Of a DNA stretch of 64,000 nt, positions 16,670 to 39,461 are shown one piece after another. Each line of letters opens with the position of its first letter. Position 1 is the first letter of the stretch. Below the pieces are notes generated by a model. It searched no databases, had not been told where the DNA came from, and saw nothing but the letters and a program-made list of their open reading frames with translations. The position numbers were made by a program, and so were the translations under genes. Origin of the DNA: SAR324 cluster bacterium SAR324-CTD7B (lineage in GTDB: Bacteria; SAR324; NAC60-12); NCBI GenBank assembly GCA_002082305.1, contig LSNO01000017.1, positions 813-64,812 on the forward strand, read 5' to 3'.

Positions 16670-19318
16670 TTAATCATTCTGTGACGGCACTAGTTTCAAA
16701 ACATCCGTCCATGTCACGGCAAGTGCCGGAATTAAAATCATGGTTGCCAACGCACTGATATTTAATGTTAGCCAAATCATCCAGCTCAGTGTTACTAATG
16801 GTAAAAATTCTGAGACACTCAAAGCCAAAAAACCAAAACCTACAGTTACTGCATTAGACGTGATGGCTTTTCCACTGCGTCTGACCGTGTTTGATATTGC
16901 ATCATGTAGTTCTGTACCATCAGCTAATTCGTGAAACATGCTGGATAGGTAGTGAATACTGTAATCAACACCAATTCCAATCACAATACTGCTGACAAGG
17001 GCGGTACCTATGTCCAGATGAACACCAAAAAACCCCATTACTCCAAAATTAAACAGCACCGTAAAGACAAGGGGAATCATTCCCATTAATCCCCTGGAAA
17101 CTGAGCGAAAAATCAAAGCCAGCATTAAAAATACAGCTAATATAGAACCGCTCAAACTTCGGATTTGACTAGTCACTACTTCATTGCTTGTTGCAACATT
17201 TATCGGCACCATTCCTGATGAAGTCATGCTAAAACCCTGCGGAAACTGCCGGACCGCATAATCTTCAATACTCTGCAGAAGTTTTTCCTCTTCCGTAGTT
17301 GAATTAGAACTGATAGTAACTGCCAAATTTAAATTTAGATACTCGCTGTCAACCACGTCGGAAAGTACATCACCTCCGGAATTTTCATAGAGCACAAGAT
17401 ACTGTGCTATCAAATCCCGCCCACTGATTTCTCTCTTTACAGTTCGCTTTTCGGTTTGGCCGTTTTCTTCAAATATCTCCTCACTTTCCAGAAATTCAAA
17501 TCCGTTCGGTAGTCGATTAAATTCTTTGCGATTCTCATTAAAAGCATAGCTGATACGCTTAATCAAATCAACAAGCGAGAGTGTCCGCTTGACCCTTGGT
17601 TCATTTGCTAAAAATTCCTGAAATTCTTCAACGACTTTCAAGTTATCCGGATTTTTCCAAGGTTCTTCTTCACCTGATTTTGTGATCACAATGTTGATCG
17701 TACGGCTTCCAGACATTTTTTCCATAGCACGGTTTGCAATCACCAAAGGTGCATCTGCCTGAAAATAACTTTCCAAACTGCTTTCCACTTTCACTTGTGA
17801 AAGTCCATAAATTGAAATTGCGGAAATCGCTAGTGCTGCCAACAAAACTGGTCGTGCGTTTCGTAGAACCCATGCTGTCATAACGTCAAGAGACTTTTGA
17901 AAAAGACGATCCATGAAATTCACCTGATGTACTCCTCTGGAAAGGTTTTCATCTGTTCCGGAACCTTCCTGAGACGCTGATACTTTTTCCGGAAGTACCA
18001 TCAGCAATGCGGGAATAAATATCAGAGAAAGGACCATTGCCAGTAATGTTCCAACGGCAACAAAAATTCCAAACGTAAAAATCGGTACTATGTCGCTGAC
18101 TGTGAGCGATAAAAAACCAACTGCCGTTGTGATTGAAGTCATTGTCACAGGTAGAGCAAGTTTATCCAGCATCAAACAGACAGCTTTTTCACGGGGAAGT
18201 CCCTCTATACGATTTTCACGGTATTCAGAAAACATGTGAATTCCGTCTGCGACTCCAATCGAAATCAGGAAAACCGGCAAAGCCGAGGTGATGGTATTGA
18301 GAGGAACCTCAAAAACAACCATAATTGCCAGCGTAAACAATATCGAAAATCCAACCACCAGCATTGGAACAGCAACCCCGCTTGGTCTCCTGAATGTCAG
18401 CCAAAGGAAAAAGACTGCCAGCAAAGCAACAAAAGGGAAAAAGCGCTGAGTGTCCTGATCAATCACTGTACGCAGAGTGGCGGCAACAATGGGAAACCCT
18501 GCAATATAATGCTTATCAATTCCAGGGTTTTCCTCAAAAATACGTTCCAATGCAATATAAGTTGAATACAGAATCTCAGAATCATCTTCGTCCATTGCCA
18601 ATTCAACAAAAATTCCTGTACGCCGCCCGTCTTCGCTGAAGAAGGAATTCCTGAACAAATCATTTTCTAAAACTCTGCGGCGCAAACTTTTCATCTCTCC
18701 CGGAGTTCCTGGAATTACTTCAAATATCTTCTCAATCGTCAACCCCTCCTCTGAACCATAAATATCATCAGTGTTCGAAATCGATGTCACCTCCACTACC
18801 GGAGCAGAACGAACTTCAATATTCCGGAGCAGGGAATTCCATTCCGGAAACCAGCGGCCTTCATTTTCCAGAGTTTCTCTCATTTCTTCAAACTCCATCC
18901 AGAACATGTCATTTAGATCTTTAACTTCTTTCGGAAGCAGCTTTTGCAGACGTAGACCTTCTTTTCCGGACATTTGTTCTGCTATTACATTCAAAGCCTC
19001 CAAGTCTTCAGTTGAAAGCAACTGCATGTTTTGTATTGCTTCGGTCAGTCGTTGGATCCGTTCCAGCGTATTGGTTTTAAAGATCGTGTCCTTAGCTTCC
19101 AGCATGATAAAAACACCAGAATTTGTACCAGTAAAATCTTCACGAAGCTGCTGCAGCGCTTGACGTGCAGGATGGCTGACTGGCAGAAGATGGGGACTGG
19201 GATCATTTTTAAGAAACAACAAGCTGGGAACAACTGACGCTCCCAGGAATAGAGTTAAAAACAGAATTCGTTTGGGATAGCGCACAACCCAGCCTTGAAT
19301 TATTTTCAGAGGAGTCAC
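16670..19318 (-). CDS. MMPL/RND-superfamily transporter (HpnN-like lipid exporter family)
   Basis: 882 aa with two 6-TM bundles, each followed or preceded by a large periplasmic loop. Repeated 'GIGVDxxIH' motifs ('SIGVADGIHMF', 'GIGVDYSIHYL') are typical of MMPL/SSD transporters. Confidence 0.85.
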   Translation of the reverse strand: MTPLKIIQGWVVRYPKRILFLTLFLGASVVPSLLFLKNDPSPHLLPVSHPARQALQQLREDFTGTNSGVFIMLEAKDTIFKTNTLERIQRLTEAIQNMQLLSTEDLEALNVIAEQMSGKEGLRLQKLLPKEVKDLNDMFWMEFEEMRETLENEGRWFPEWNSLLRNIEVRSAPVVEVTSISNTDDIYGSEEGLTIEKIFEVIPGTPGEMKSLRRRVLENDLFRNSFFSEDGRRTGIFVELAMDEDDSEILYSTYIALERIFEENPGIDKHYIAGFPIVAATLRTVIDQDTQRFFPFVALLAVFFLWLTFRRPSGVAVPMLVVGFSILFTLAIMVVFEVPLNTITSALPVFLISIGVADGIHMFSEYRENRIEGLPREKAVCLMLDKLALPVTMTSITTAVGFLSLTVSDIVPIFTFGIFVAVGTLLAMVLSLIFIPALLMVLPEKVSASQEGSGTDENLSRGVHQVNFMDRLFQKSLDVMTAWVLRNARPVLLAALAISAISIYGLSQVKVESSLESYFQADAPLVIANRAMEKMSGSRTINIVITKSGEEEPWKNPDNLKVVEEFQEFLANEPRVKRTLSLVDLIKRISYAFNENRKEFNRLPNGFEFLESEEIFEENGQTEKRTVKREISGRDLIAQYLVLYENSGGDVLSDVVDSEYLNLNLAVTISSNSTTEEEKLLQSIEDYAVRQFPQGFSMTSSGMVPINVATSNEVVTSQIRSLSGSILAVFLMLALIFRSVSRGLMGMIPLVFTVLFNFGVMGFFGVHLDIGTALVSSIVIGIGVDYSIHYLSSMFHELADGTELHDAISNTVRRSGKAITSNAVTVGFGFLALSVSEFLPLVTLSWMIWLTLNISALATMILIPALAVTWTDVLKLVPSQND

Positions 19319-24618: not shown

Positions 24619-25857
24619 TCAAATTTTCAAACGGACTACGTTCAGTGGCTGGACTTGGGAAATTCCAGAAACATCAGCTGATTGTTCTGCTGCTTCTGAA
24701 CACGCAAAACGAAAAAGTCTGCTGGGATTTGCTCTTTTTACCGGCTTGTTGTTCAAGTCCTTCATTTCCTGGGTTGAAATCTTGATCACTCCTCCGTCAA
24801 ATGTCAAAATTTCCAAGGTCTTATTTCGGTCAAAAGAATTATGAGTCAGCATGGTGAAAGACTTTCCGTCTTCAACTTCCATCACAGTTCCTGCAATCTC
24901 ATAGCCGGAATTCCTCCCGTTCCGCTCACCTTGATAAACACTTTCAGCATCTGCTTCATTATTTAGGGAACCATCTGTGTAGCCTCTGTGTGGAATTTTT
25001 TCCAACATGCCGGACAACTCTTGAAGTTTCTCGGACCATTGCTCTTGTAGGGTTGAATTACACCATTTTAATGCGAGAGCATATGCACTTGTGGTTGTTG
25101 CTGCATACAGAGGACTTTTCATGCGACCCTCTACTTTAATGCTGTCTACACCTATTTTGAGGAACTTTGGCAGCAAGTCAATGCCCCGCAAATCTTTTGA
25201 ACTCATCAATGAGCTCGGAGTATTATCCGGAGAATTAACTGCTACTGCATTGTTGACCGGAATTGCTGAATATGAAAAACGACAGCTTTGAATACATCCG
25301 CCACGATTACTGTCACGCCCGGCTGTGTAATTTGAGATTGTGCAGTTACCAGAATAAGCCATACACATTGCACCGTGAATGAATAGCTCAATCTCAATAT
25401 CGACTTCCTTCCGGATGCATCCGGCTTCTTCCAGAGATACTTCACGTCCCAATACAAGCCTTTTAACTCCCAGATTTTTCCAGACTTTTGCAGAATGAAT
25501 ATTTAAGCATGATGCCTGCGTGGAAAGATGCACCGGCAATTTTGAGTGCTGCTGAACAACCGTCAGCACACCAAGATCGGATACAATCACTGCATCCACA
25601 CTTGTTTTCTCTAAAAAGCGTACATATTCCGGAAGCTCTCTGAGTTCCTTATCATGTAAAAACGCATTTAATGTTACGTATGTTTTACAATTATTTAGAT
25701 GCGCAAATTTTATCCCTTCACACAACTCTGTATCCGAGAAATTATCTGAAGCTCCACGTAAACTAAATTTTGGACCTGCTAAATAAACTGCATCTGCACC
25801 ATACAGAACAGCAGTTTTTAATTTGTCTAAATTACCGGCTGGCGCAAGAAGTTCCAT
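24619..25857 (-). CDS. peptidase U32 family protein
   Basis: 412 aa with 'MELLAPAGNLDKLKTAVLYGADAVYL' and 'EIELFIHGAMCMAYSGNCTISNY', the U32 collagenase-like signature. Confidence 0.87.
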   Translation of the reverse strand: MELLAPAGNLDKLKTAVLYGADAVYLAGPKFSLRGASDNFSDTELCEGIKFAHLNNCKTYVTLNAFLHDKELRELPEYVRFLEKTSVDAVIVSDLGVLTVVQQHSKLPVHLSTQASCLNIHSAKVWKNLGVKRLVLGREVSLEEAGCIRKEVDIEIELFIHGAMCMAYSGNCTISNYTAGRDSNRGGCIQSCRFSYSAIPVNNAVAVNSPDNTPSSLMSSKDLRGIDLLPKFLKIGVDSIKVEGRMKSPLYAATTTSAYALALKWCNSTLQEQWSEKLQELSGMLEKIPHRGYTDGSLNNEADAESVYQGERNGRNSGYEIAGTVMEVEDGKSFTMLTHNSFDRNKTLEILTFDGGVIKISTQEMKDLNNKPVKRANPSRLFRFACSEAAEQSADVSGISQVQPLNVVRLKI

Positions 25858-32084: not shown

Positions 32085-33435
32085 GGTGTTTTCTACGTCG
32101 CTGGTTGGTAAAATATTCTCCGGTATCCTTGGAAACAAGTTCATAAAGTATGGCCTGTTTTCCGGGACGTGCTCGCAGAATTCGTCCCAGACGCTGAACA
32201 TGCTCCCGAATACTGCCGCTTCCGGAAACAATCATGCCGACATTCGCATCCGGAACATCAACTCCTTCATTCAGAACTTTTGAAGTGACTAGAATCGGAT
32301 ATTCGCCTGATCTGAATGATTTTAGAAAAGCCTCCCGTTCCGGTAGTTTTGTATGATGTGTAAGCACCGGTAACAGGAAATTATTCCCAATGCGGTAAGC
32401 CATTTCGTTGTCTTGCGTAAAAACCAGCATACGGTCACCTTTATGCTGCTGAATCAGTTCCCACAAACGATCTACTTTTGCTCCGGATGCCTGACTGAGC
32501 TTCTTTTGCAGCAAATAAGCCTTGAATGCTTTCCGGCCTTCAGGACTTTCACTGGTTCTGCGTAAAAAAATAGCCCAACCGCTTGGATGCTGAAAGCTGA
32601 TACGTGCTTTACGTAAAAAATCAGTATAGCATTCACGTGAAATCTCGTATTGCTCACGCTCCTCCGGACGCATATCTACCTCGATTGTTTCCACCACGTA
32701 TGGTGCCAGGGTACGACCGCTTAACTCGTCAATATGAACTTCGTAACAAAGAGGCCCGCAAAGTTCGTAAAGGACTTGCTCTTTTCCGTCAGCACGTTCC
32801 GGAGTTGCAGTCAAACCCAGGCGGAATGGAGCAATTGAACCAAGTGCAGTAAATTGATTTTGCTCACCAGGCAAATGGTGACATTCATCAAAAACCAGGA
32901 GTCCAAACAAATTACCCTGATGTGTTACATGGATCAAAGCAGAGTCGTAAGTTGCTACAGTAATTGTCTGAATATCATTTATTCCACCACCAAGTAAACC
33001 AATTGGAGTTTCAAAATATTCGCTTAAAACCTCTTTCCATTGCCGCATCAGATCAATCGTTGGAACATGAATCAAAGTTGGTCGTCCGGTTTCCGCAATC
33101 AGCATTACTGCCAGAATAGTTTTACCTGCACCGGTTGGTAAAGTTACTACTCCGTGCTTTTCTGACAACCATGCTTCAGCAGCTTCACTTTGAAAAGAAC
33201 GAGGTCTAATGTTCTTTTTCAGGACAAAAGTTTCTGCAGAAAATTTTCGGGCATGGTCCTGGAAGCTAATGTTCTTCTCACACAGTGCTGTGACAAGTTT
33301 ACGGTAGTTGGCTGCAGGAGTACGGTAACTGTTTGTCCGCTCATCCCAGGAAATTCCGTCAAGATGCTGCATATATCTACCCGCCATGCCGTGAAGCTGG
33401 ATGGTTCCTTTATCGAAGTGCAGGCTGAGAGTCAT
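32020..33435 (-). CDS. XPB/Ssl2-like superfamily-2 DNA helicase
   Basis: 471 aa with N-terminal 'LHFDKGTIQLHG' (damage-recognition-domain-like), motif I 'LPTGAGKT', motif II 'VFDECHH', 'GLTATPERADGKE' (RED-like) and motif VI 'HVQRLGRILR'. Confidence 0.85.
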   Translation of the reverse strand: MTLSLHFDKGTIQLHGMAGRYMQHLDGISWDERTNSYRTPAANYRKLVTALCEKNISFQDHARKFSAETFVLKKNIRPRSFQSEAAEAWLSEKHGVVTLPTGAGKTILAVMLIAETGRPTLIHVPTIDLMRQWKEVLSEYFETPIGLLGGGINDIQTITVATYDSALIHVTHQGNLFGLLVFDECHHLPGEQNQFTALGSIAPFRLGLTATPERADGKEQVLYELCGPLCYEVHIDELSGRTLAPYVVETIEVDMRPEEREQYEISRECYTDFLRKARISFQHPSGWAIFLRRTSESPEGRKAFKAYLLQKKLSQASGAKVDRLWELIQQHKGDRMLVFTQDNEMAYRIGNNFLLPVLTHHTKLPEREAFLKSFRSGEYPILVTSKVLNEGVDVPDANVGMIVSGSGSIREHVQRLGRILRARPGKQAILYELVSKDTGEYFTNQRRRKHRAYEGPVVLPDESGQNSAQIN

Positions 33436-33501
33436 TTCAACAATTTCGTGTCCAGTTTAAATTTCAACAGGTACTGAAAAAATAGGATTATCTAGTTCAA
33501 T

Positions 33502-33521
33502 AAATCAGTTAAAACTGATTT
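33502..33521 (-). terminator. weak hairpin downstream of the methyltransferase gene (possible terminator)
   Basis: AAATCAGT-TAAA-ACTGATTT forms a perfect 8-bp but AT-rich stem ~10 nt after the ICMT stop. There is no strong U-tract on the minus strand. Confidence 0.3.
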
Positions 33522-33529
33522 TTACACAG

Positions 33530-34045
33530 CTAAATTTCATCTAGAGCGAGTTCTTCCAAACGTATACGGTGGCGGAGAATAATAAGATTGGCCAGAGAAA
33601 AAACAACGGCCGTTCCATATGCTGCATGAAGCAAAGGTACACTGGCTATTTCCAATATCACTCCCAAATAATTCGGGTGCCGTACAAATCGATATATTCC
33701 GTGCTTAATCAACGGTGCATCCGGAACAACGTAAATACGGGTGGACCAACGCTCTGCGAGTGTCCGGATGGCAAAATAGCGCAGGGTTTGTCCAGCAGCT
33801 AATCCTGAAAATGCCGCTATCACCAACCATAAAGGCGGTGCTGTCCTAAAGTACCAGACCTCTGCCAGCATTGCTGCAAACCACGAAACATGTAAGGCGA
33901 CCAAAACTCGATAATGTTCAGGGAAACGCTCGAATCCGCCTTTTTCCCTCATCCTGATTTCGTTGCGCCGGCTTCGTCTCAATTCCCACAAGCGCTGTGC
34001 AGCCAGCAATGCTACCAACAACATGAATCCCCAAAGGCTCACCAT
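33530..34045 (-). CDS. isoprenylcysteine carboxyl methyltransferase (ICMT)-family membrane methyltransferase
   Basis: 171 aa, polytopic, with 'GIYRFVRHPNYLGVILE', the ICMT/PEMT-type motif. Its start overlaps the PKS stop by 7 nt. Confidence 0.82.
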   Translation of the reverse strand: MVSLWGFMLLVALLAAQRLWELRRSRRNEIRMREKGGFERFPEHYRVLVALHVSWFAAMLAEVWYFRTAPPLWLVIAAFSGLAAGQTLRYFAIRTLAERWSTRIYVVPDAPLIKHGIYRFVRHPNYLGVILEIASVPLLHAAYGTAVVFSLANLIILRHRIRLEELALDEI

Positions 34046-35205
34046 TGCAGCAAAACCAATTCACCGGAAAATGCCGGTCCCAATGAAATCATCATTCCAA
34101 AATTTCCGGTATCGGATTTACCATAGATTTTCGGAACCGGACCATTTAAACATTCGTCAAGTATAACCAGAACTGAAGTTGAAGAAATATTACCTACTTC
34201 ACGGAGGTGTTTCCGTGTTTTATCAAGTGATTTTGGAGGCAACTCCAAGCATGATTCAATTGTATCAATCACCTTTGGTCCTCCTGGATGAGTGAGCCAA
34301 AGAGCAATATCAGGAATGGATAGTCCGTGTTCTGCAAGGAAACTGTCCACATGCGGCCGTAACTGCTTCGCATAGCCGGGAACCCCTTGCCCCAGCATAA
34401 TTTTCAATCCACGATCTGTTACATCCCAACCCATGACTTCTTCTGAGTCAGGAAAGAAAATTGATTTACTGCTCAAAACCCTGGGCTTATGAAACTCATG
34501 ATCTTTTTCACTTTCATCTTTTGAACCTTTGGAAACTTTGGAACCATGAAACTCATTAGCTTTGCTATTTCGTTTTTCATTACTTTTCACCAACGGATGT
34601 TGGTCGCCAACCAGCAAAACTGCTGCCGCTCCGTCTCCAAAAAGTCCACTCGAAATGATGTTTGCAATCGAGAGGTCTTCGGCCTGTAAAGTTAATGAAC
34701 AAAGCTCAATAGTAAGCAATATAGCCGCTTCCTCCGGATGTCCTTTCAAATAATCGCCAACGCGTGCAACCCCTGCAGTACCGGCAAGACAGCCCAAACC
34801 AAACAATGGAACCCTCTTTAAATCCTGAGCAAAGGCAATTCTGTTCATCAAGCGTGCTTCCAATGAAGGCACAGTCACTCCTGTACTGGTTACACTCATA
34901 AGCATCTGAATTTCTTGCGGATGCAAGTTAGTTTTTTCCAGTAAATCATTAATAACCCGCTCGCCCAACTCTAAAGCCACTTCCAGCCATGCACGGTTGC
35001 AGTCTGCAAACCCGTCCAGCTTGTAATATTCAGACATGGGCAAAGCCAAATAGCGGCCTTCAACAGTTACTGCTTTCTGCAGACGGTCAAAGATCGCTAC
35101 ATCCAAACCTTTTTTAATCCACACTGCTCTCAACGCAAAACTTATTTCTTGCTGCGAATGATAATGCGTCGGGAAAGCTGTGGCTGTGTTGATAATATGA
35201 GGCAT
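34039..35205 (-). CDS. type III polyketide synthase (chalcone/stilbene synthase family)
   Basis: 388 aa with the catalytic triad context 'GLGCLAGTAG' (Cys), 'WLTHPGGPKVID' (His) and 'VGNISSTSVLVILDE' (Asn). Confidence 0.9.
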   Translation of the reverse strand: MPHIINTATAFPTHYHSQQEISFALRAVWIKKGLDVAIFDRLQKAVTVEGRYLALPMSEYYKLDGFADCNRAWLEVALELGERVINDLLEKTNLHPQEIQMLMSVTSTGVTVPSLEARLMNRIAFAQDLKRVPLFGLGCLAGTAGVARVGDYLKGHPEEAAILLTIELCSLTLQAEDLSIANIISSGLFGDGAAAVLLVGDQHPLVKSNEKRNSKANEFHGSKVSKGSKDESEKDHEFHKPRVLSSKSIFFPDSEEVMGWDVTDRGLKIMLGQGVPGYAKQLRPHVDSFLAEHGLSIPDIALWLTHPGGPKVIDTIESCLELPPKSLDKTRKHLREVGNISSTSVLVILDECLNGPVPKIYGKSDTGNFGMMISLGPAFSGELVLLQW

Positions 35206-35289
35206 CGGGAAGGACAGTCTATGATACTATAATTTATTGATCAAAATGAGAGATCAAACTTTTTTATATTTTTCAAGTAGCCGCGTTCT

Positions 35290-35544
35290 TTATGAATTTA
35301 TACGTATTTCTAAATGATCAATAATATCAGAAACTTTCTGCATTTCCAGGACAGTTTCTATATCAGCCTCTATTTTGAACTCATCTTCGAGTGCCATGAT
35401 AATATTCATTGCATCAAGGGAGACGATATCCAAATCATCACGCAAATTCATTTCTGTATTGAGATCATTTGATTTCAAGCCCATTTCCACGGCAATTGTT
35501 TGAAGACAGGATTGCTCAATTTTTTTGCGTGTTATGGTTTCCAT
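35290..35544 (-). CDS. acyl carrier protein
   Basis: 84 aa. 'LRDDLDIVSLDAMNIIMALEDEFKIE' contains the phosphopantetheine-Ser context (D-x-x-S-L-D). It overlaps the KS stop by 13 nt. Confidence 0.8.
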   Translation of the reverse strand: METITRKKIEQSCLQTIAVEMGLKSNDLNTEMNLRDDLDIVSLDAMNIIMALEDEFKIEADIETVLEMQKVSDIIDHLEIRINS

Positions 35545-36779
35545 TTTCGAAAAACAAGTACTGCATTACTACCTCCAAAGGCGAAGGAATTGGAAAGTGC
35601 CGCTTCAATCTGGACTTTCCGGGAATTATATGGAACGGGATCAATCACACATTCGGGGTCCAGGTCGTCGCAATTAAGAGTTGGCGGAGCACAGTCGTTC
35701 TGCACTGCCAGCAAAGTCGCCAGGGCCTCCAGCGCTGAAGATGCTCCCATTGCATGACCAAACAATGATTTGCTGGAACTGACCGGCAACTTTACTGACC
35801 TATCGCCAAAAACCCGGTGAATTGCACGGCATTCGAGCGGGTCATTAAGACGGGTTCCTGTTCCGTGGGCATTGATGTAGCCGATGGAATCTGGTGACAT
35901 TTCAGCATCGTCCAAAGCTAATTTCATTGATTCTGCCACTCCGTTTTCATCCGGATTTGTCAAACTAGAAGCATCACAGTTTGAACCAAAACCGGCAATT
36001 TCTCCAAAGACTGGAGCATTTCTTTTATTTGCAGATTCTAATGATTCGAGTACTAAAACAGCAGCTCCTTCGGCTAATACGAAACCACTACGATTTTTGT
36101 CGAACGGTCGACAGGCAGTTTCAGGAGTTTCGTTATACTTACGTGAAAGCACACCTAGTGCGTCCCATGCACGTAGAAGACCGTACGTGACAGGTGCTTC
36201 TGCACCTCCGCAAATAACAGCGCGTAACCGGCCTTCTCGAATCCACTGCATTGCCTGGCCTACAGCATTCCCTCCTGAAGAACAGGCTGTATTCAGTGTA
36301 AAGTTCGGCCCCTTTATTCCCAAACGTATTGCTATTGCCGATGAAACCGCACTGTTCATTATGCGTGGAATGGTGTAAGCGTCAATTGGCCGTTCTTCCG
36401 GTCCAGCGTAAAGTGCATCGTAGGCTTGTGCATAAGAGGTTATTCCCCCTACACCGGTCCCCATCATCACACCAATTTCTCCGGAATCACCGTCCTGATC
36501 CAAGAGATTGGCTTCTTCAGCAGCCCTTAGTGCCGCAACCAGACCAAACTGAGTGAAGCGCTCATAGCTTTTTTTTTCACGATGACTAAAATGTACGTCA
36601 GAATCAAAATCTGTAACCATACCTGCAATTTGGCAGGATGCCCCTGAAGAATCAAATTCAGTAATTTTACGGACTCCGGAGACACCATTACAAAGCCCTT
36701 CCCAATAGTCTGAAACAGAACTGCCGATTGGCGAAATAACACCTCGGCCTGTTACTACAACTCGTTTTTTTGTTTCCAA
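35532..36779 (-). CDS. beta-ketoacyl-ACP synthase, KAS I/II (FabF-like)
   Basis: 415 aa with 'RVVVTGRGVISPIG', active-site 'NTACSSGGNAVGQA', 'YINAHGTGT' and 'SSKSLFGHAMGASS'. Confidence 0.9.
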   Translation of the reverse strand: METKKRVVVTGRGVISPIGSSVSDYWEGLCNGVSGVRKITEFDSSGASCQIAGMVTDFDSDVHFSHREKKSYERFTQFGLVAALRAAEEANLLDQDGDSGEIGVMMGTGVGGITSYAQAYDALYAGPEERPIDAYTIPRIMNSAVSSAIAIRLGIKGPNFTLNTACSSGGNAVGQAMQWIREGRLRAVICGGAEAPVTYGLLRAWDALGVLSRKYNETPETACRPFDKNRSGFVLAEGAAVLVLESLESANKRNAPVFGEIAGFGSNCDASSLTNPDENGVAESMKLALDDAEMSPDSIGYINAHGTGTRLNDPLECRAIHRVFGDRSVKLPVSSSKSLFGHAMGASSALEALATLLAVQNDCAPPTLNCDDLDPECVIDPVPYNSRKVQIEAALSNSFAFGGSNAVLVFRKWKP

Positions 36780-36872
36780 ATTAACATTCCGTATGGCGGC
36801 TTAAAAACCTGCAATATTTTGAAATCGTTCGCAGATGCCGGGTTACACTTCACTAACCAGTTCTTCAAAGTG

Positions 36873-37992
36873 TTAGCGCATATTGACAGACAGCAGTTTT
36901 TGAAACAATGCTGGAAAGGAGTGCAAAACCTGAATCACACCATCCGTCAACTTTGGCCATAAGCGAAGTAACAGTACCAAACTGGTCATAATCTGATATC
37001 GTCGATAGATTTGAGCACTTGCTCGTGAATAATCAAACATTGCCTTTACAAGATTTCCAGAATTCTCTTTCAATACCGGCTCTACATATTTTTCTAACAA
37101 AAGTGCCTGCCTGGCCGCAATACCGATACCTTCGCCAGTAATAGGATCAAAAAAGCCGGCGGCATCACCAATCAGCAAGATTTTTCCATTCGCCACACCC
37201 AGTGTTTTCTGGTACAACGGACCTTTTGCCACCGACTCATCCAGAACATCTGCGTTTTTTAAGCGATCCTGCAGTTCCGGAAATTCATTTAACATTGAGC
37301 AAAACAACTTTTTGCCGCCATGCTCAGGTTTGTAGCGCTTTGCGTCCCACAATAAACTGACGTTTATGCTGGTTTCAGAAACCGGAGTCACATAGGCTTC
37401 AAGCCCTGAACCCCAATGAATTTCAACAAACGCGCTCCAGGGTTCAACATTAAAATGTTGTCGAACACCCCCAGCGTTTCAGCTTTGGGATTGTTGCTTC
37501 CAGATTTGCCAGTTTTCTAACCCGTGAATGCAACCCATCTGCGCCAATCAATAGTTTTGGGTGAAAAACATTATTTTTAATACTGACTTCAGGATTTTCT
37601 TCTAAAGAACATGCTACAGAAGCCCCTTCTTGTATTTCAAGATTTGGTAAAGTTTCGGCACATTCAAGCAATGCGGCAGATAGCTTAGTTCGCTGAACAC
37701 CCCATCCGCAACCTTCTGCAAAATTTGCTTCTGCAACACTACCCTTTGCGGAAACATAGCTGATCCCTTTAAAAAGGTGGTAGGGATATTTTTCCAGGAA
37801 ATGAGCTACTCCCAACTTCTTGAAATTATTAACACCCGAGGGCATAATACCTTCACCACAGGCTTTATCGATTGGATATGTTTGTTTTTCCAAAACCAAT
37901 GTCCGTAGTTCATTCCTGGCACAGGCGATCCCCGCGAACAATCTGGCAGGACCGCCTCCAATTATGATTACATCATAGTTGTGTTCGGACAT
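36873..37992 (-). pseudogene. FAD-dependent oxidoreductase/monooxygenase (geranylgeranyl-reductase-like), interrupted by +1 frameshift in a G5 run
   Basis: The two track ORFs (37450-37992 with 'YDVIIIGGGPA'; 36873-37391 with 'LLIGDAAGFFDPITGEGI') are the N and C halves of one ~372-aa flavoprotein. Removing one G from the run at 37468-37472 (C5 on plus) joins them: '...KRWGVRQHFNVEPWSAFVEIHWGSGLEAYVTPVSE...'. Confidence 0.78.
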
Positions 37993-38051
37993 TTATGCCA
38001 TCCAGTTGGAGATTTGAACAAGAATACGGCCCCTTTGCTGTGACCAGAATG

Positions 38052-39461
38052 TCACAAACTTAACTGCACATTAGTATCACGCAGTGCTGTGCGCAAACCT
38101 TCTTCAATCACAGGATGGTAGAATGGCATTTCCAGCATTTGAGGAATTGTCATTTTCTGCTGGTGTGCCCATGACAGCAAATGCGCCAAATGTTCCGCCT
38201 GTGGACCAATGAATTCACTCCCCAGAAAAAGTCCAGAAGTTCGATCTGCATAAATATGCATCAAACCCTTGTTTTTAAGCATTACCCGACTACGGCCTTG
38301 TCCCTCAAAGGACAGTTTCCCCACAACTACATTTTCCTGTCCTTTTAGTTCACCCCATGACTGTCCTACCATTGCAATTTGAGGATCACAGAAAACAACC
38401 GAAATAGGAGATCTCCGCATACCTGATTTAATGTCCGGAAAACGTCCGGCATTGTCACCGGCAATTCTTCCCTCATCTGCCGCTTCGTGGAGCAACAGCA
38501 TAGTGTTATTTACATCTCCGGCAATAAAAATAGACGAATCTCCGCATTGCATAGTATTTGGGTCAAACACCGGAACCTCCCGGGAATCAAGTTCAAGACT
38601 GGTGTTTTCCAATCCTAAGTTTATTACATTTGGGGAACGTCCGGTAGCCGCCAGTACATACTCAAAATTTTCTTCCTTTTCCTTGCCGTCTTCCCTGTCA
38701 ACAAAACGAATCTTTACTTGATCACCTTCACGCTCCAAACCATGCAGATTGGCTTTCGTATCGAGAGGGAATTCGGCTTGAAACACCTTTTCTGCATAAT
38801 CCCTGATTGCCATATCGCTGAGAGGTGTAAGTGAACCTGAACGCCCAAAAACCCTTATACGGACTCCAAGTCGGTGCAATGCCTGACCAAGCTCAATCCC
38901 AATCAGGCCCGGGCCAAAAACAGCAACTGACTCCGGTAGTGTTTCCCATTCAAATACATCGTCATTGACAATCAGTCTATCACCAAGCCCTTTAAACATC
39001 GGCATGAGTTTTGGAGAAGAACCGGTTGCAATTACGACTGATTTGGCTTCAATTATCTCCTCACCAACCTCAAGTCTATGATCATCAAGAAATTTTGCAT
39101 GGTTTCGAAGGTGGTGTTTTTGATCAATATTTTCAATATCGTCCAATACAAACCCCACAAATCGGTCACGTTCACCTCGAATGCGCTCCATCACTTCTCT
39201 ACCATTGACAACAGGTTTTGCTGTCTGAATTCCAAAGCCGGAAGCAGTCTCTACTGAATGAGCCGCTTCTGCAGCAGCAATTAGGAGTTTGCTGGGCATA
39301 CAACCAACACGGGCGCAGGTAGTTCCGTAAACTCCTCCTTCGATCAGTACAACTTTTTCAGAGTGTTTTCGTGCAGCACGAAAAGCCGGAAGCCCGGCAG
39401 AACCGGCACCTATGATGGCAACATCAACCTGACGATTCGATTTTTGTGAATTATTCAACAA
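38052..39461 (-). CDS. pyridine nucleotide-disulfide oxidoreductase, dihydrolipoyl dehydrogenase family
   Basis: 469 aa with 'VAIIGAGSAGL', redox-active 'GTTCARVGCMPSK', an NAD site 'VAVFGPGLIGIELG' and a C-terminal dimerisation 'HP' motif. TTG start. Confidence 0.85.
   Translation of the reverse strand: MLNNSQKSNRQVDVAIIGAGSAGLPAFRAARKHSEKVVLIEGGVYGTTCARVGCMPSKLLIAAAEAAHSVETASGFGIQTAKPVVNGREVMERIRGERDRFVGFVLDDIENIDQKHHLRNHAKFLDDHRLEVGEEIIEAKSVVIATGSSPKLMPMFKGLGDRLIVNDDVFEWETLPESVAVFGPGLIGIELGQALHRLGVRIRVFGRSGSLTPLSDMAIRDYAEKVFQAEFPLDTKANLHGLEREGDQVKIRFVDREDGKEKEENFEYVLAATGRSPNVINLGLENTSLELDSREVPVFDPNTMQCGDSSIFIAGDVNNTMLLLHEAADEGRIAGDNAGRFPDIKSGMRRSPISVVFCDPQIAMVGQSWGELKGQENVVVGKLSFEGQGRSRVMLKNKGLMHIYADRTSGLFLGSEFIGPQAEHLAHLLSWAHQQKMTIPQMLEMPFYHPVIEEGLRTALRDTNVQLSL

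Follow-up and report, generated by a model that had tools for sequence, protein, structure and literature searches.

In Bacillus subtilis (BpsA/BpsB), and in the polyketide synthase (PKS) and methyltransferase pair of Negativicutes, the gene for a type III PKS overlaps that for an ICMT-type methyltransferase, and the enzymes yield a membrane lipid, either a methylated alkylpyrone or a methylated alkylresorcinol; BpsB, like SrsB, is an O-methylating ICMT-type enzyme. In NodE/NodF of rhizobia, AcpM-KasA/KasB and AcpXL-FabF1/2XL, a non-housekeeping β-ketoacyl-acyl carrier protein synthase I or II (KAS I/II) works with its own acyl carrier protein (ACP) on a specialised acyl chain and borrows the enzymes of type II fatty acid synthesis (FAS II). 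In this study, we found a ketosynthase (KS) and ACP pair directly upstream of a type III PKS and its methyltransferase in SAR324 cluster bacterium SAR324-CTD7B, a member of an uncultured lineage that is among the most abundant bacteria of the dark ocean. The DNA analysed, hereafter the window, is a stretch of 64,000 nucleotides (contig LSNO01000017.1, positions 813 to 64,812), and the operon region at 33530-37992, on the minus strand, holds the remnant of a flavoprotein gene followed by the genes for KS, ACP, type III PKS and ICMT-type methyltransferase. We consider it reasonably probable that the last four make up a polycistronic phenolic-lipid operon of a SAR324-lineage marine bacterium, in which the PKS receives its starter via a private ACP.

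BpsA/BpsB consists of two genes and draws its starters from the general acyl pool; unlike the window, it lacks a private pair of KS and ACP. As in the window, an FAD hydroxylase and an ICMT-type methyltransferase accompany a PKS of the same family in SrsABC of Streptomyces griseus, PkqABC of M. smegmatis and Streptomyces sp. MNU77, and HidABC of cyanobacteria and Planctomycetota, the alkylresorcinol and polyketide-quinone chemistry of which has been described (PMC9927152, PMC10896814), and homologues of the three window proteins are clustered in Streptomyces, Mycobacterium and many other loci. Unlike the window, the Srs, Pkq and Hid operons have no ketosynthase or carrier protein, and their hydroxylase gene lies downstream of the methyltransferase gene, whereas that of the window lies upstream of the KS gene. 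The coupling of ICMT to PKS is common to both, but in the window population the FAD hydroxylase is not intact.

Carrier-bound starters are found in other systems. In FtpABCDE of Myxococcus xanthus and ArsABCD of Azotobacter vinelandii, the operon itself encodes the carrier protein that brings the starter to the long-chain PKS (PMC6274091); a fatty acyl-AMP ligase (FAAL) loads a free fatty acid in Ftp, and the chain is built on a type I FAS in Ars. The window operon has neither enzyme type, and its discrete KS and ACP take the place of the FAAL and ACP of myxobacterial Ftp-type loci. Such a replacement of FAAL or type I FAS had been proposed in a first-pass annotation of the window made from the sequence alone, and the window operon bears it out. 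In the Cyl system, the KS and ACP of CylH perform one malonyl extension, and the type III PKS CylI accepts the ACP-derived β-keto diketide, adds two more units and cyclises the chain to a resorcinol (PMC6836626). In structure, the window PKS matches CylI best, and PKS11, which uses long-chain acyl starters, is also close. However, CylH is a type I module of several domains, among them an acyltransferase (AT), and receives its substrate from a FAAL (CylA) and an ACP (CylB), whereas the KS and ACP of the window are discrete type II proteins in an operon without a FAAL or AT gene. ACP-bound starters are taken by the type III PKSs of the Ars, Gcs/SCO7671 and Cyl systems (PMC6274091, PMC8086630). 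Thus, the enzyme families and the overall logic, with carrier-bound PKS starters on the one hand and specialised KS-ACP pairs on the other, are known, but the combination itself is uncharacterised: as the first-pass annotation had supposed, no characterised or described cluster with a KS, ACP and type III PKS cassette was found in the full-text literature, subscription journals being outside its coverage. The hand-off from CylH to CylI and the NodE/NodF pair come closest to it.

The conserved four-gene unit

The KS gene (35532-36779; 415 aa, TTG start) encodes a FabF-like β-ketoacyl synthase, which Pfam, TIGR03150 and PRK07314 together identify as a non-housekeeping KAS II paralogue, and it overlaps by 13 nt the gene for a discrete ACP of 84 aa (35290-35544; PF00550). 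After a gap of 84 nt follows the gene for the type III PKS (34039-35205; 388 aa), which in turn overlaps by 7 nt the gene for an ICMT-family membrane O-methyltransferase of 171 aa (33530-34045). Both overlaps had been reported before and were reproduced when the junctions were measured, and open reading frames (ORFs), Pfam and subfamily models agree with the five co-oriented genes of the first-pass annotation, with their identities and with their coordinates. Nevertheless, the conserved functional unit consists of the four genes KS-ACP-PKS-ICMT and not of five, since the flavoprotein gene is a decaying pseudogene in the window population; the four are conserved and under selection.

The PKS matches PF02797 (Chal_sti_synt_C) with 78 bits, PF08392 (FAE1_CUT1_RppA) with 62 and PF00195 (Chal_sti_synt_N) with 40, the cut-off being 27, and its Cys-His-Asn triad (Cys139/His306/Asn339) is invariant in a 19-sequence alignment. 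Among solved structures, PKS11 of M. tuberculosis comes nearest in sequence with 279 bits, followed by CylI with 246. An AlphaFold2 model (predicted local distance difference test, pLDDT, 81; predicted template modelling score, pTM, 0.85) gave Foldseek template modelling (TM) scores of 0.84-0.87 to CylI (36% identity, including its complex with a β-ketoacyl-N-acetylcysteamine thioester, SNAC) and of 0.85-0.93 to PKS11. By sequence, triad and predicted fold, the enzyme is best placed as a member of the long-chain alkylresorcinol/alkylpyrone synthase clade, in line with the phenolic-lipid PKS proposed earlier; the references for this placement were context-identified orthologues from Streptomyces (L045), Mycobacterium (L071) and Myxococcus (L052). 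Trp260, within an invariant MGWD motif, was aligned by eye with Gly256 of chalcone synthase (CHS), and PKS11 has a Trp at this position too. Trp281 of ArsB is a determinant of resorcinol formation (PMC9927152), and Trp260 may correspond to it.

A Lys/Ser/Glu-rich insertion of about 35 aa (residues ~204-240; 34486-34596) distinguishes the PKSs of the SAR324-type clade, the only one to contain it, and is variable in sequence. Alignment and a pLDDT below 50 over residues 210-238 predict it to be a disordered surface loop, and contigs of two metatranscriptomes carry a 9-nt deletion at 34518 inside it. Nothing in the model or the alignment suggests that the insertion disables the PKS. An apparent joint between 35276 and 34088, considered as a possible deletion or duplication in the PKS gene, was rejected, for it consisted only of 18-22-nt chance matches in short contigs.

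The methyltransferase scores 93 bits against PF04140 and also matches PF04191. A homologue of it is encoded directly downstream of the PKS in most of 161 related loci, and the 7-nt overlap in the window, with the translational coupling that it implies, fits the pairing of PKS and ICMT-type methyltransferase in Bps, Srs and Ftp to which the first-pass annotation had likened it.

For comparison, 176 loci were gathered from species-representative genomes, Joint Genome Institute (JGI) metagenomes and exact-protein look-ups, and the window proteins were mapped on them by tblastn. The PKS-ICMT order is found in nearly all loci of this PKS family, in most cases with the flavoprotein gene after it. 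In Actinobacteria, the order is PKS-MT-FAD, the Srs/Pkq type (MT, methyltransferase), and in Myxococcota and Acidobacteriota about 2 kb separate MT from FAD, a gap that in Myxococcus sp. L052 holds the gene for a 667-aa AMP-binding protein, a FAAL-type gene as in Ftp. A KS-ACP pair directly upstream of the PKS was found in 15 of 161 loci, while 99 loci with enough upstream DNA do not have it. All 15 fall into one PKS clade, with a Shimodaira-Hasegawa approximate likelihood ratio test (SH-aLRT) support of 98, and the KS-ACP-PKS-ICMT cassette recurs in four flanking contexts, which belong to SAR324 relatives, to TL4 and to two other lineages of metagenome-assembled genomes (MAGs). In the SAR324 context (window, L170, L001 and L081/82/94), the order is LPD-(FAD)-KS-ACP-PKS-ICMT-XPB, where LPD is a dihydrolipoyl-dehydrogenase-type gene; in TL4 (L003), it is RsmE-KS-ACP-PKS-ICMT-MT; and in L085, with the same arrangement in L086/87, it is XerC-KS-ACP-PKS-ICMT-LUD. 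Gene order is constant and the junctions are tight in six loci: for KS/ACP, ACP/PKS and PKS/ICMT, respectively, they measure -13, +84 and -7 nt in the window, L170 and L081 (with ACP-PKS gaps of 80-85 nt), -4, -1 and -4 nt in L085 and L086, and -13, +16 and -10 nt in L003. The MT of TL4 (L003:9702-10316), which follows the cassette downstream of ICMT, is a class I S-adenosylmethionine (SAM) methyltransferase (Methyltransf_31/25/11) and suggests a second methylation in that lineage.

KS, ACP, PKS and ICMT are under purifying selection, with ratios of nonsynonymous to synonymous substitution rates (dN/dS) of 0.08-0.3. Between clades, dN/dS is 0.08-0.15 for these genes, and values per gene are 0.08-0.09 for KS, 0-0.14 for ACP and 0.10-0.29 for PKS; within the population, PKS and ICMT give 0.29-0.32, KS 0.09 and the neighbouring XPB gene 0.30. 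The unit is also represented in RNA. Four declared metatranscriptomic RNA-Seq runs (X26, X27, X29 and X35) yielded contigs 95-99% identical to the window that cover LPD, KS, ACP, PKS and ICMT; run X12, labelled metatranscriptomic but with an 88-kb contig, was treated as DNA and left out of the expression evidence. The KS/ACP junction is bridged by contigs of X29 (35347-36669) and X26 (35341-35888), ACP/PKS by a contig of X27 (34976-35302), PKS/ICMT by contigs of X29 (33460-34911), X26 (33612-34269) and X27 (33974-34318), and ICMT/XPB by a contig of X35 (33095-34154). Although these are unstranded assembled contigs of low depth, their bridging of the junctions argues for polycistronic transcription in situ and supports the co-transcription of KS, ACP, PKS and ICMT expected from the first reading of the locus. 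Being conserved, under selection and transcribed, the KS-ACP pair that immediately precedes the PKS belongs to the unit rather than being there by chance.

Decay of the flavoprotein gene

Upstream of KS lies a pseudogene for an FAD-dependent monooxygenase of the SrsC/PkqC/FtpE type (36873-37992), split into an N-terminal ORF at 37450-37992, which matches FAD_binding_3, and a C-terminal ORF at 36873-37391; both halves match GG-reductase, UbiH and LodB-like models. The frameshift between them had been seen in the first-pass annotation and proved to be real. L170 (372 aa) and L001 have intact genes, relative to which an additional base in a G-run at ~37468-37472 causes a +1 shift; the same base is present in the independent metagenome contigs L090, L093, L103 and L121, and contigs of four further runs have no indel relative to the window at this site. 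Further lesions are a +1 at 37272 (L090 and L121), a -1 and a -4 (L090), a -1 and a +1 (L093) and an 861-bp deletion (L092). RNA contigs of X26, X27 and X29, 98.7% identical to the window, join 36796 to 38027, which amounts to a clean loss of the whole gene (1230 bp) and sets KS about 40 nt behind LPD, and one RNA contig of 2047 nt extends over both LPD and KS, suggesting that transcription reads through from LPD. In another X29 RNA contig, with a depth of 2.9, two more C at the 37467 homopolymer make the insertion +3 relative to the intact gene and would restore the frame; this may be a rare in-frame allele, slippage or error.

Between the window and L093, dN/dS is 0.68 and 1.87 for the two flavoprotein fragments, in contrast to 0.09 for KS and LPD, and the nucleotide identity of the fragments is ~95%, compared with 98-99% for the neighbouring genes. 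The gene is absent without trace in the sister clade of 87% identity (L081/82/94/108/119) and intact in the clade of 70-78% identity (L170 and L001), which may make a hydroxylated quinone product. In the window population, the flavoprotein gene is a genuine decaying pseudogene that evolves neutrally, and the quinone therefore falls away there among the products named in the first-pass annotation, whereas a methylated alkylresorcinol or alkylpyrone is still likely.

The KS-ACP pair and alternative explanations

The KS contains both the N-terminal and the C-terminal ketoacyl-synt domains (Pfam), passes the subfamily model PRK07314 (459 versus 387) and has a Cys-His-His triad (Cys166/His305/His342) that is invariant in 10 sequences. 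The ACP matches PF00550 (PP-binding) with 33 bits, over a cut-off of 20.8, and Ser42 in its SLD motif, the phosphopantetheine-attachment serine, is invariant across the cassettes. In the KS tree, the cassette sequences group into a single clade (SH-aLRT 98), and its sub-groupings match those of the PKS tree. Like NodE/NodF, the KS-ACP pair is discrete and translationally coupled, stands in the context of a specialised metabolite and has no reductive FAS genes with it, and more distant relatives of the KS are labelled 'nodulation protein E' by JGI. Unlike in NodE/NodF, the gene order is KS-ACP rather than ACP-KS, and the chain would be accepted by a type III PKS instead of an acyltransferase.

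KS-ACP pairs of a sister clade, with KSs 49-57% identical to that of the window, occur in Desulfobacula and other MAGs (L171:7001-15208 and L172:7001-15227). They are followed by two GNAT (Acetyltransf_3) genes, a radical SAM/SPASM protein of 806-1137 aa and small ORFs, and the loci further carry an Rce1-like CPBP protease and an ABC transporter. Each looks like a cluster of the lipidated type of ribosomally synthesised and post-translationally modified peptide (RiPP), supplied by the same kind of KS-ACP module. On an acidobacterial contig (L173:6705-10967), an ACP-KS pair, also labelled 'nodulation protein E' by JGI, accompanies a glycosyltransferase resembling monogalactosyldiacylglycerol (MGDG) synthase and an AMP-binding enzyme.

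Several observations weigh against a private supply of starter by this pair. L174 (3487-7845) has the flank of L085/L086 but not the PKS-ICMT half, its order being ZapA-XerC-KS-ACP-bactofilin, and in L176 (1173-6264) a KS of the same clade and an ACP occur with an Lnt-like N-acyltransferase and a sulfatase and without a PKS. Conversely, PKSs of the same clade stand alone in L084, L088/89 and L099-102. No gene for an AT, ketoreductase (KR), dehydratase (DH), enoylreductase (ER), FAAL or phosphopantetheinyl transferase (PPTase) is present in the operon in any cassette lineage, so that several steps must be borrowed from primary metabolism, and carry-over of DNA into the RNA contigs is possible. 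The KS-ACP and PKS-ICMT halves are separable, and neither strictly needs the other. Thus, the pair was rightly called part of the unit in the first-pass annotation, being conserved, selected and transcribed with the PKS, but because same-clade pairs exist without a PKS and sister pairs exist with other acyl-accepting enzymes, that it is 'dedicated' to the PKS is something we infer. L088/L089 (7702-9062) and L099-L102 represent an abundant TARA-type lineage, with 174 sequences in its PKS cluster; here, an unannotated ORF of 95 aa stops 11 nt short of the PKS, and ICMT, KS and ACP are absent.

Considering this separability, KS-ACP and PKS-ICMT might be independent modules that happen to be neighbours, with KS-ACP serving another acceptor, e.g. 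a membrane or envelope lipid, and with the PKS, like BpsA, SrsA and HidC, starting from ordinary acyl-CoA or acyl-AcpP. Such independence would suit the halves that occur alone, the hundreds of PKS-ICMT(-FAD) operons without a KS-ACP pair, and the pairs of the same or the sister clade beside GNAT and radical SAM proteins, an Lnt-like enzyme or a glycosyltransferase. However, the four genes stay together, with their order and short junctions kept, over PKS identities of 50-100% and in four unrelated flanks, and the KS and PKS trees have the same groupings. Moreover, it is the junction between the two halves, ACP/PKS, that is bridged in RNA and at which the ACP stop and PKS start overlap by 1 nt in L085 and L086. 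We regard independent modules as rather unlikely.

Much less probable still is that the whole operon is being lost in the window population like the flavoprotein gene and no longer makes a product. The many independent lesions in the flavoprotein gene, frameshifts or deletions of PKS or ICMT in the single contigs L091, L095 and L103, and a within-population dN/dS that is higher for PKS and ICMT than for KS would be expected in that case. Despite this, KS, ACP, PKS and ICMT are intact in the window, L090, L092 and L093, and also in the flavoprotein-less clade (L081, L082 and L094), the between-clade dN/dS is low, the within-population value of XPB is similar to those of PKS and ICMT, and contigs of four metatranscriptomes contain the genes. 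Each of the lesions in L091, L095 and L103 occurs once only, and a further gap of 26 bp in L103, within the unrelated gene DUF790, points to artefacts of assembly. Finally, that KS and ACP are simply the housekeeping FabF and AcpP of the organism is hardly credible: the KS is clearly FabF-like and its nearest PDB entries are FabF structures, but its 467.3 bits against TIGR03150 (fabF) do not reach the 493.75 required of an equivalog, the ACP stays at 33-47 bits with AcpP models whose equivalog cut-offs are all higher (65-106), no fabH, fabD or fabG adjoins the pair, the pair is missing from the related lineages L084 and L088, and in the KS tree the clade lies with KSs from other specialised clusters.

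Predicted pathway and implications

For the four-gene operon with a private ACP, we infer the chemical steps from the gene identities, residues, conservation, selection, junction-spanning transcription and pseudogenisation that were observed. Since the operon has no AT gene, the housekeeping malonyl-CoA:ACP transacylase would load malonate onto the private ACP. The intact KS triad and the translational coupling of KS and ACP suggest that the KS would then take a fatty acyl chain from the cellular acyl-thioester pool onto Cys166 and condense it with malonyl-ACP, leaving a chain two carbons longer on the private ACP. This β-ketoacyl-ACP could be passed straight to the type III PKS as starter, by the logic of CylH to CylI. 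Alternatively, housekeeping FabG, FabZ and FabI could reduce the chain, which might be elongated again, as in NodE/NodF, before it serves as the starter. On the grounds of linkage, co-phylogeny and co-transcription, a hand-over of the starter from ACP to PKS appears fairly probable. The PKS would add two or three malonyl-CoA and cyclise the chain to an alkylresorcinol or, less likely, an alkylpyrone, and the membrane-bound ICMT-type methyltransferase would O-methylate it, as SrsB and BpsB do. In an ancestral fifth step, lost in the window population, the flavoprotein would have hydroxylated the ring on the way to a PkQ/Srs-type methoxy-benzoquinone. The likely product in the window population, as far as it can be read from the genes, is an O-methylated alkylresorcinol or alkylpyrone lipid and not a quinone.

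A more specific form of this pathway is possible but remains tentative. KS and ACP may constitute a minimal type II module for the first, unreduced extension, which would present a β-ketoacyl-ACP diketide to the PKS for the addition of two malonyl units. With the same reserve, the system might be seen as a free-standing type II/type III hybrid PKS, a discrete counterpart of CylH to CylI. In its broader version, the KS-ACP clade would be a portable acyl-donor module placed before type III PKSs, RiPP-like GNATs, Lnt-like acyltransferases or glycolipid synthases.

The operon is flanked upstream by the LPD gene (38052-39461) and downstream by an XPB helicase/DUF790 pair. A scan for promoters and terminators returned counts at chance level and no clear boundaries. 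An AMP-binding gene, as would be expected of an Ftp-type operon with its FAAL, is absent from the cassette loci and from the window between 28.9 and 43.6 kb. An MMPL gene (16670-19318) is 14 kb from the operon with unrelated genes in between, and the MMPL genes are thus unlinked to it, as had been stated. A Peptidase_U32 family protein (241 bits; 24619-25857, minus strand) is encoded 8 kb away and is probably unrelated to the operon, since pfkB, clpX, tig and the XPB/DUF790 genes intervene. The closest named relatives are MAGs designated 'SAR324 cluster bacterium', 'Proteobacteria bacterium NIOZ-UU70' and 'Deltaproteobacteria bacterium TL4', and at least 20 marine sequencing runs contain 92-94% of the sampled words of the operon stretch.

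If the proposed pathway is true, the KS-ACP pair would represent a fourth source of starters for bacterial type III PKSs, beside the acyl-CoA/AcpP pool, FAAL with ACP, and type I FAS or PKS, and its four genes would offer a compact system for studying the recognition of carrier proteins by type III PKSs. The occurrence, within one lineage, of a flavoprotein gene that is intact, frameshifted, partly deleted or cleanly deleted constitutes a natural experiment on the switching between quinones and phenolic lipids. The pathway would further predict a class of methylated phenolic lipids in these bacteria, which could serve as biomarkers of the deep sea.

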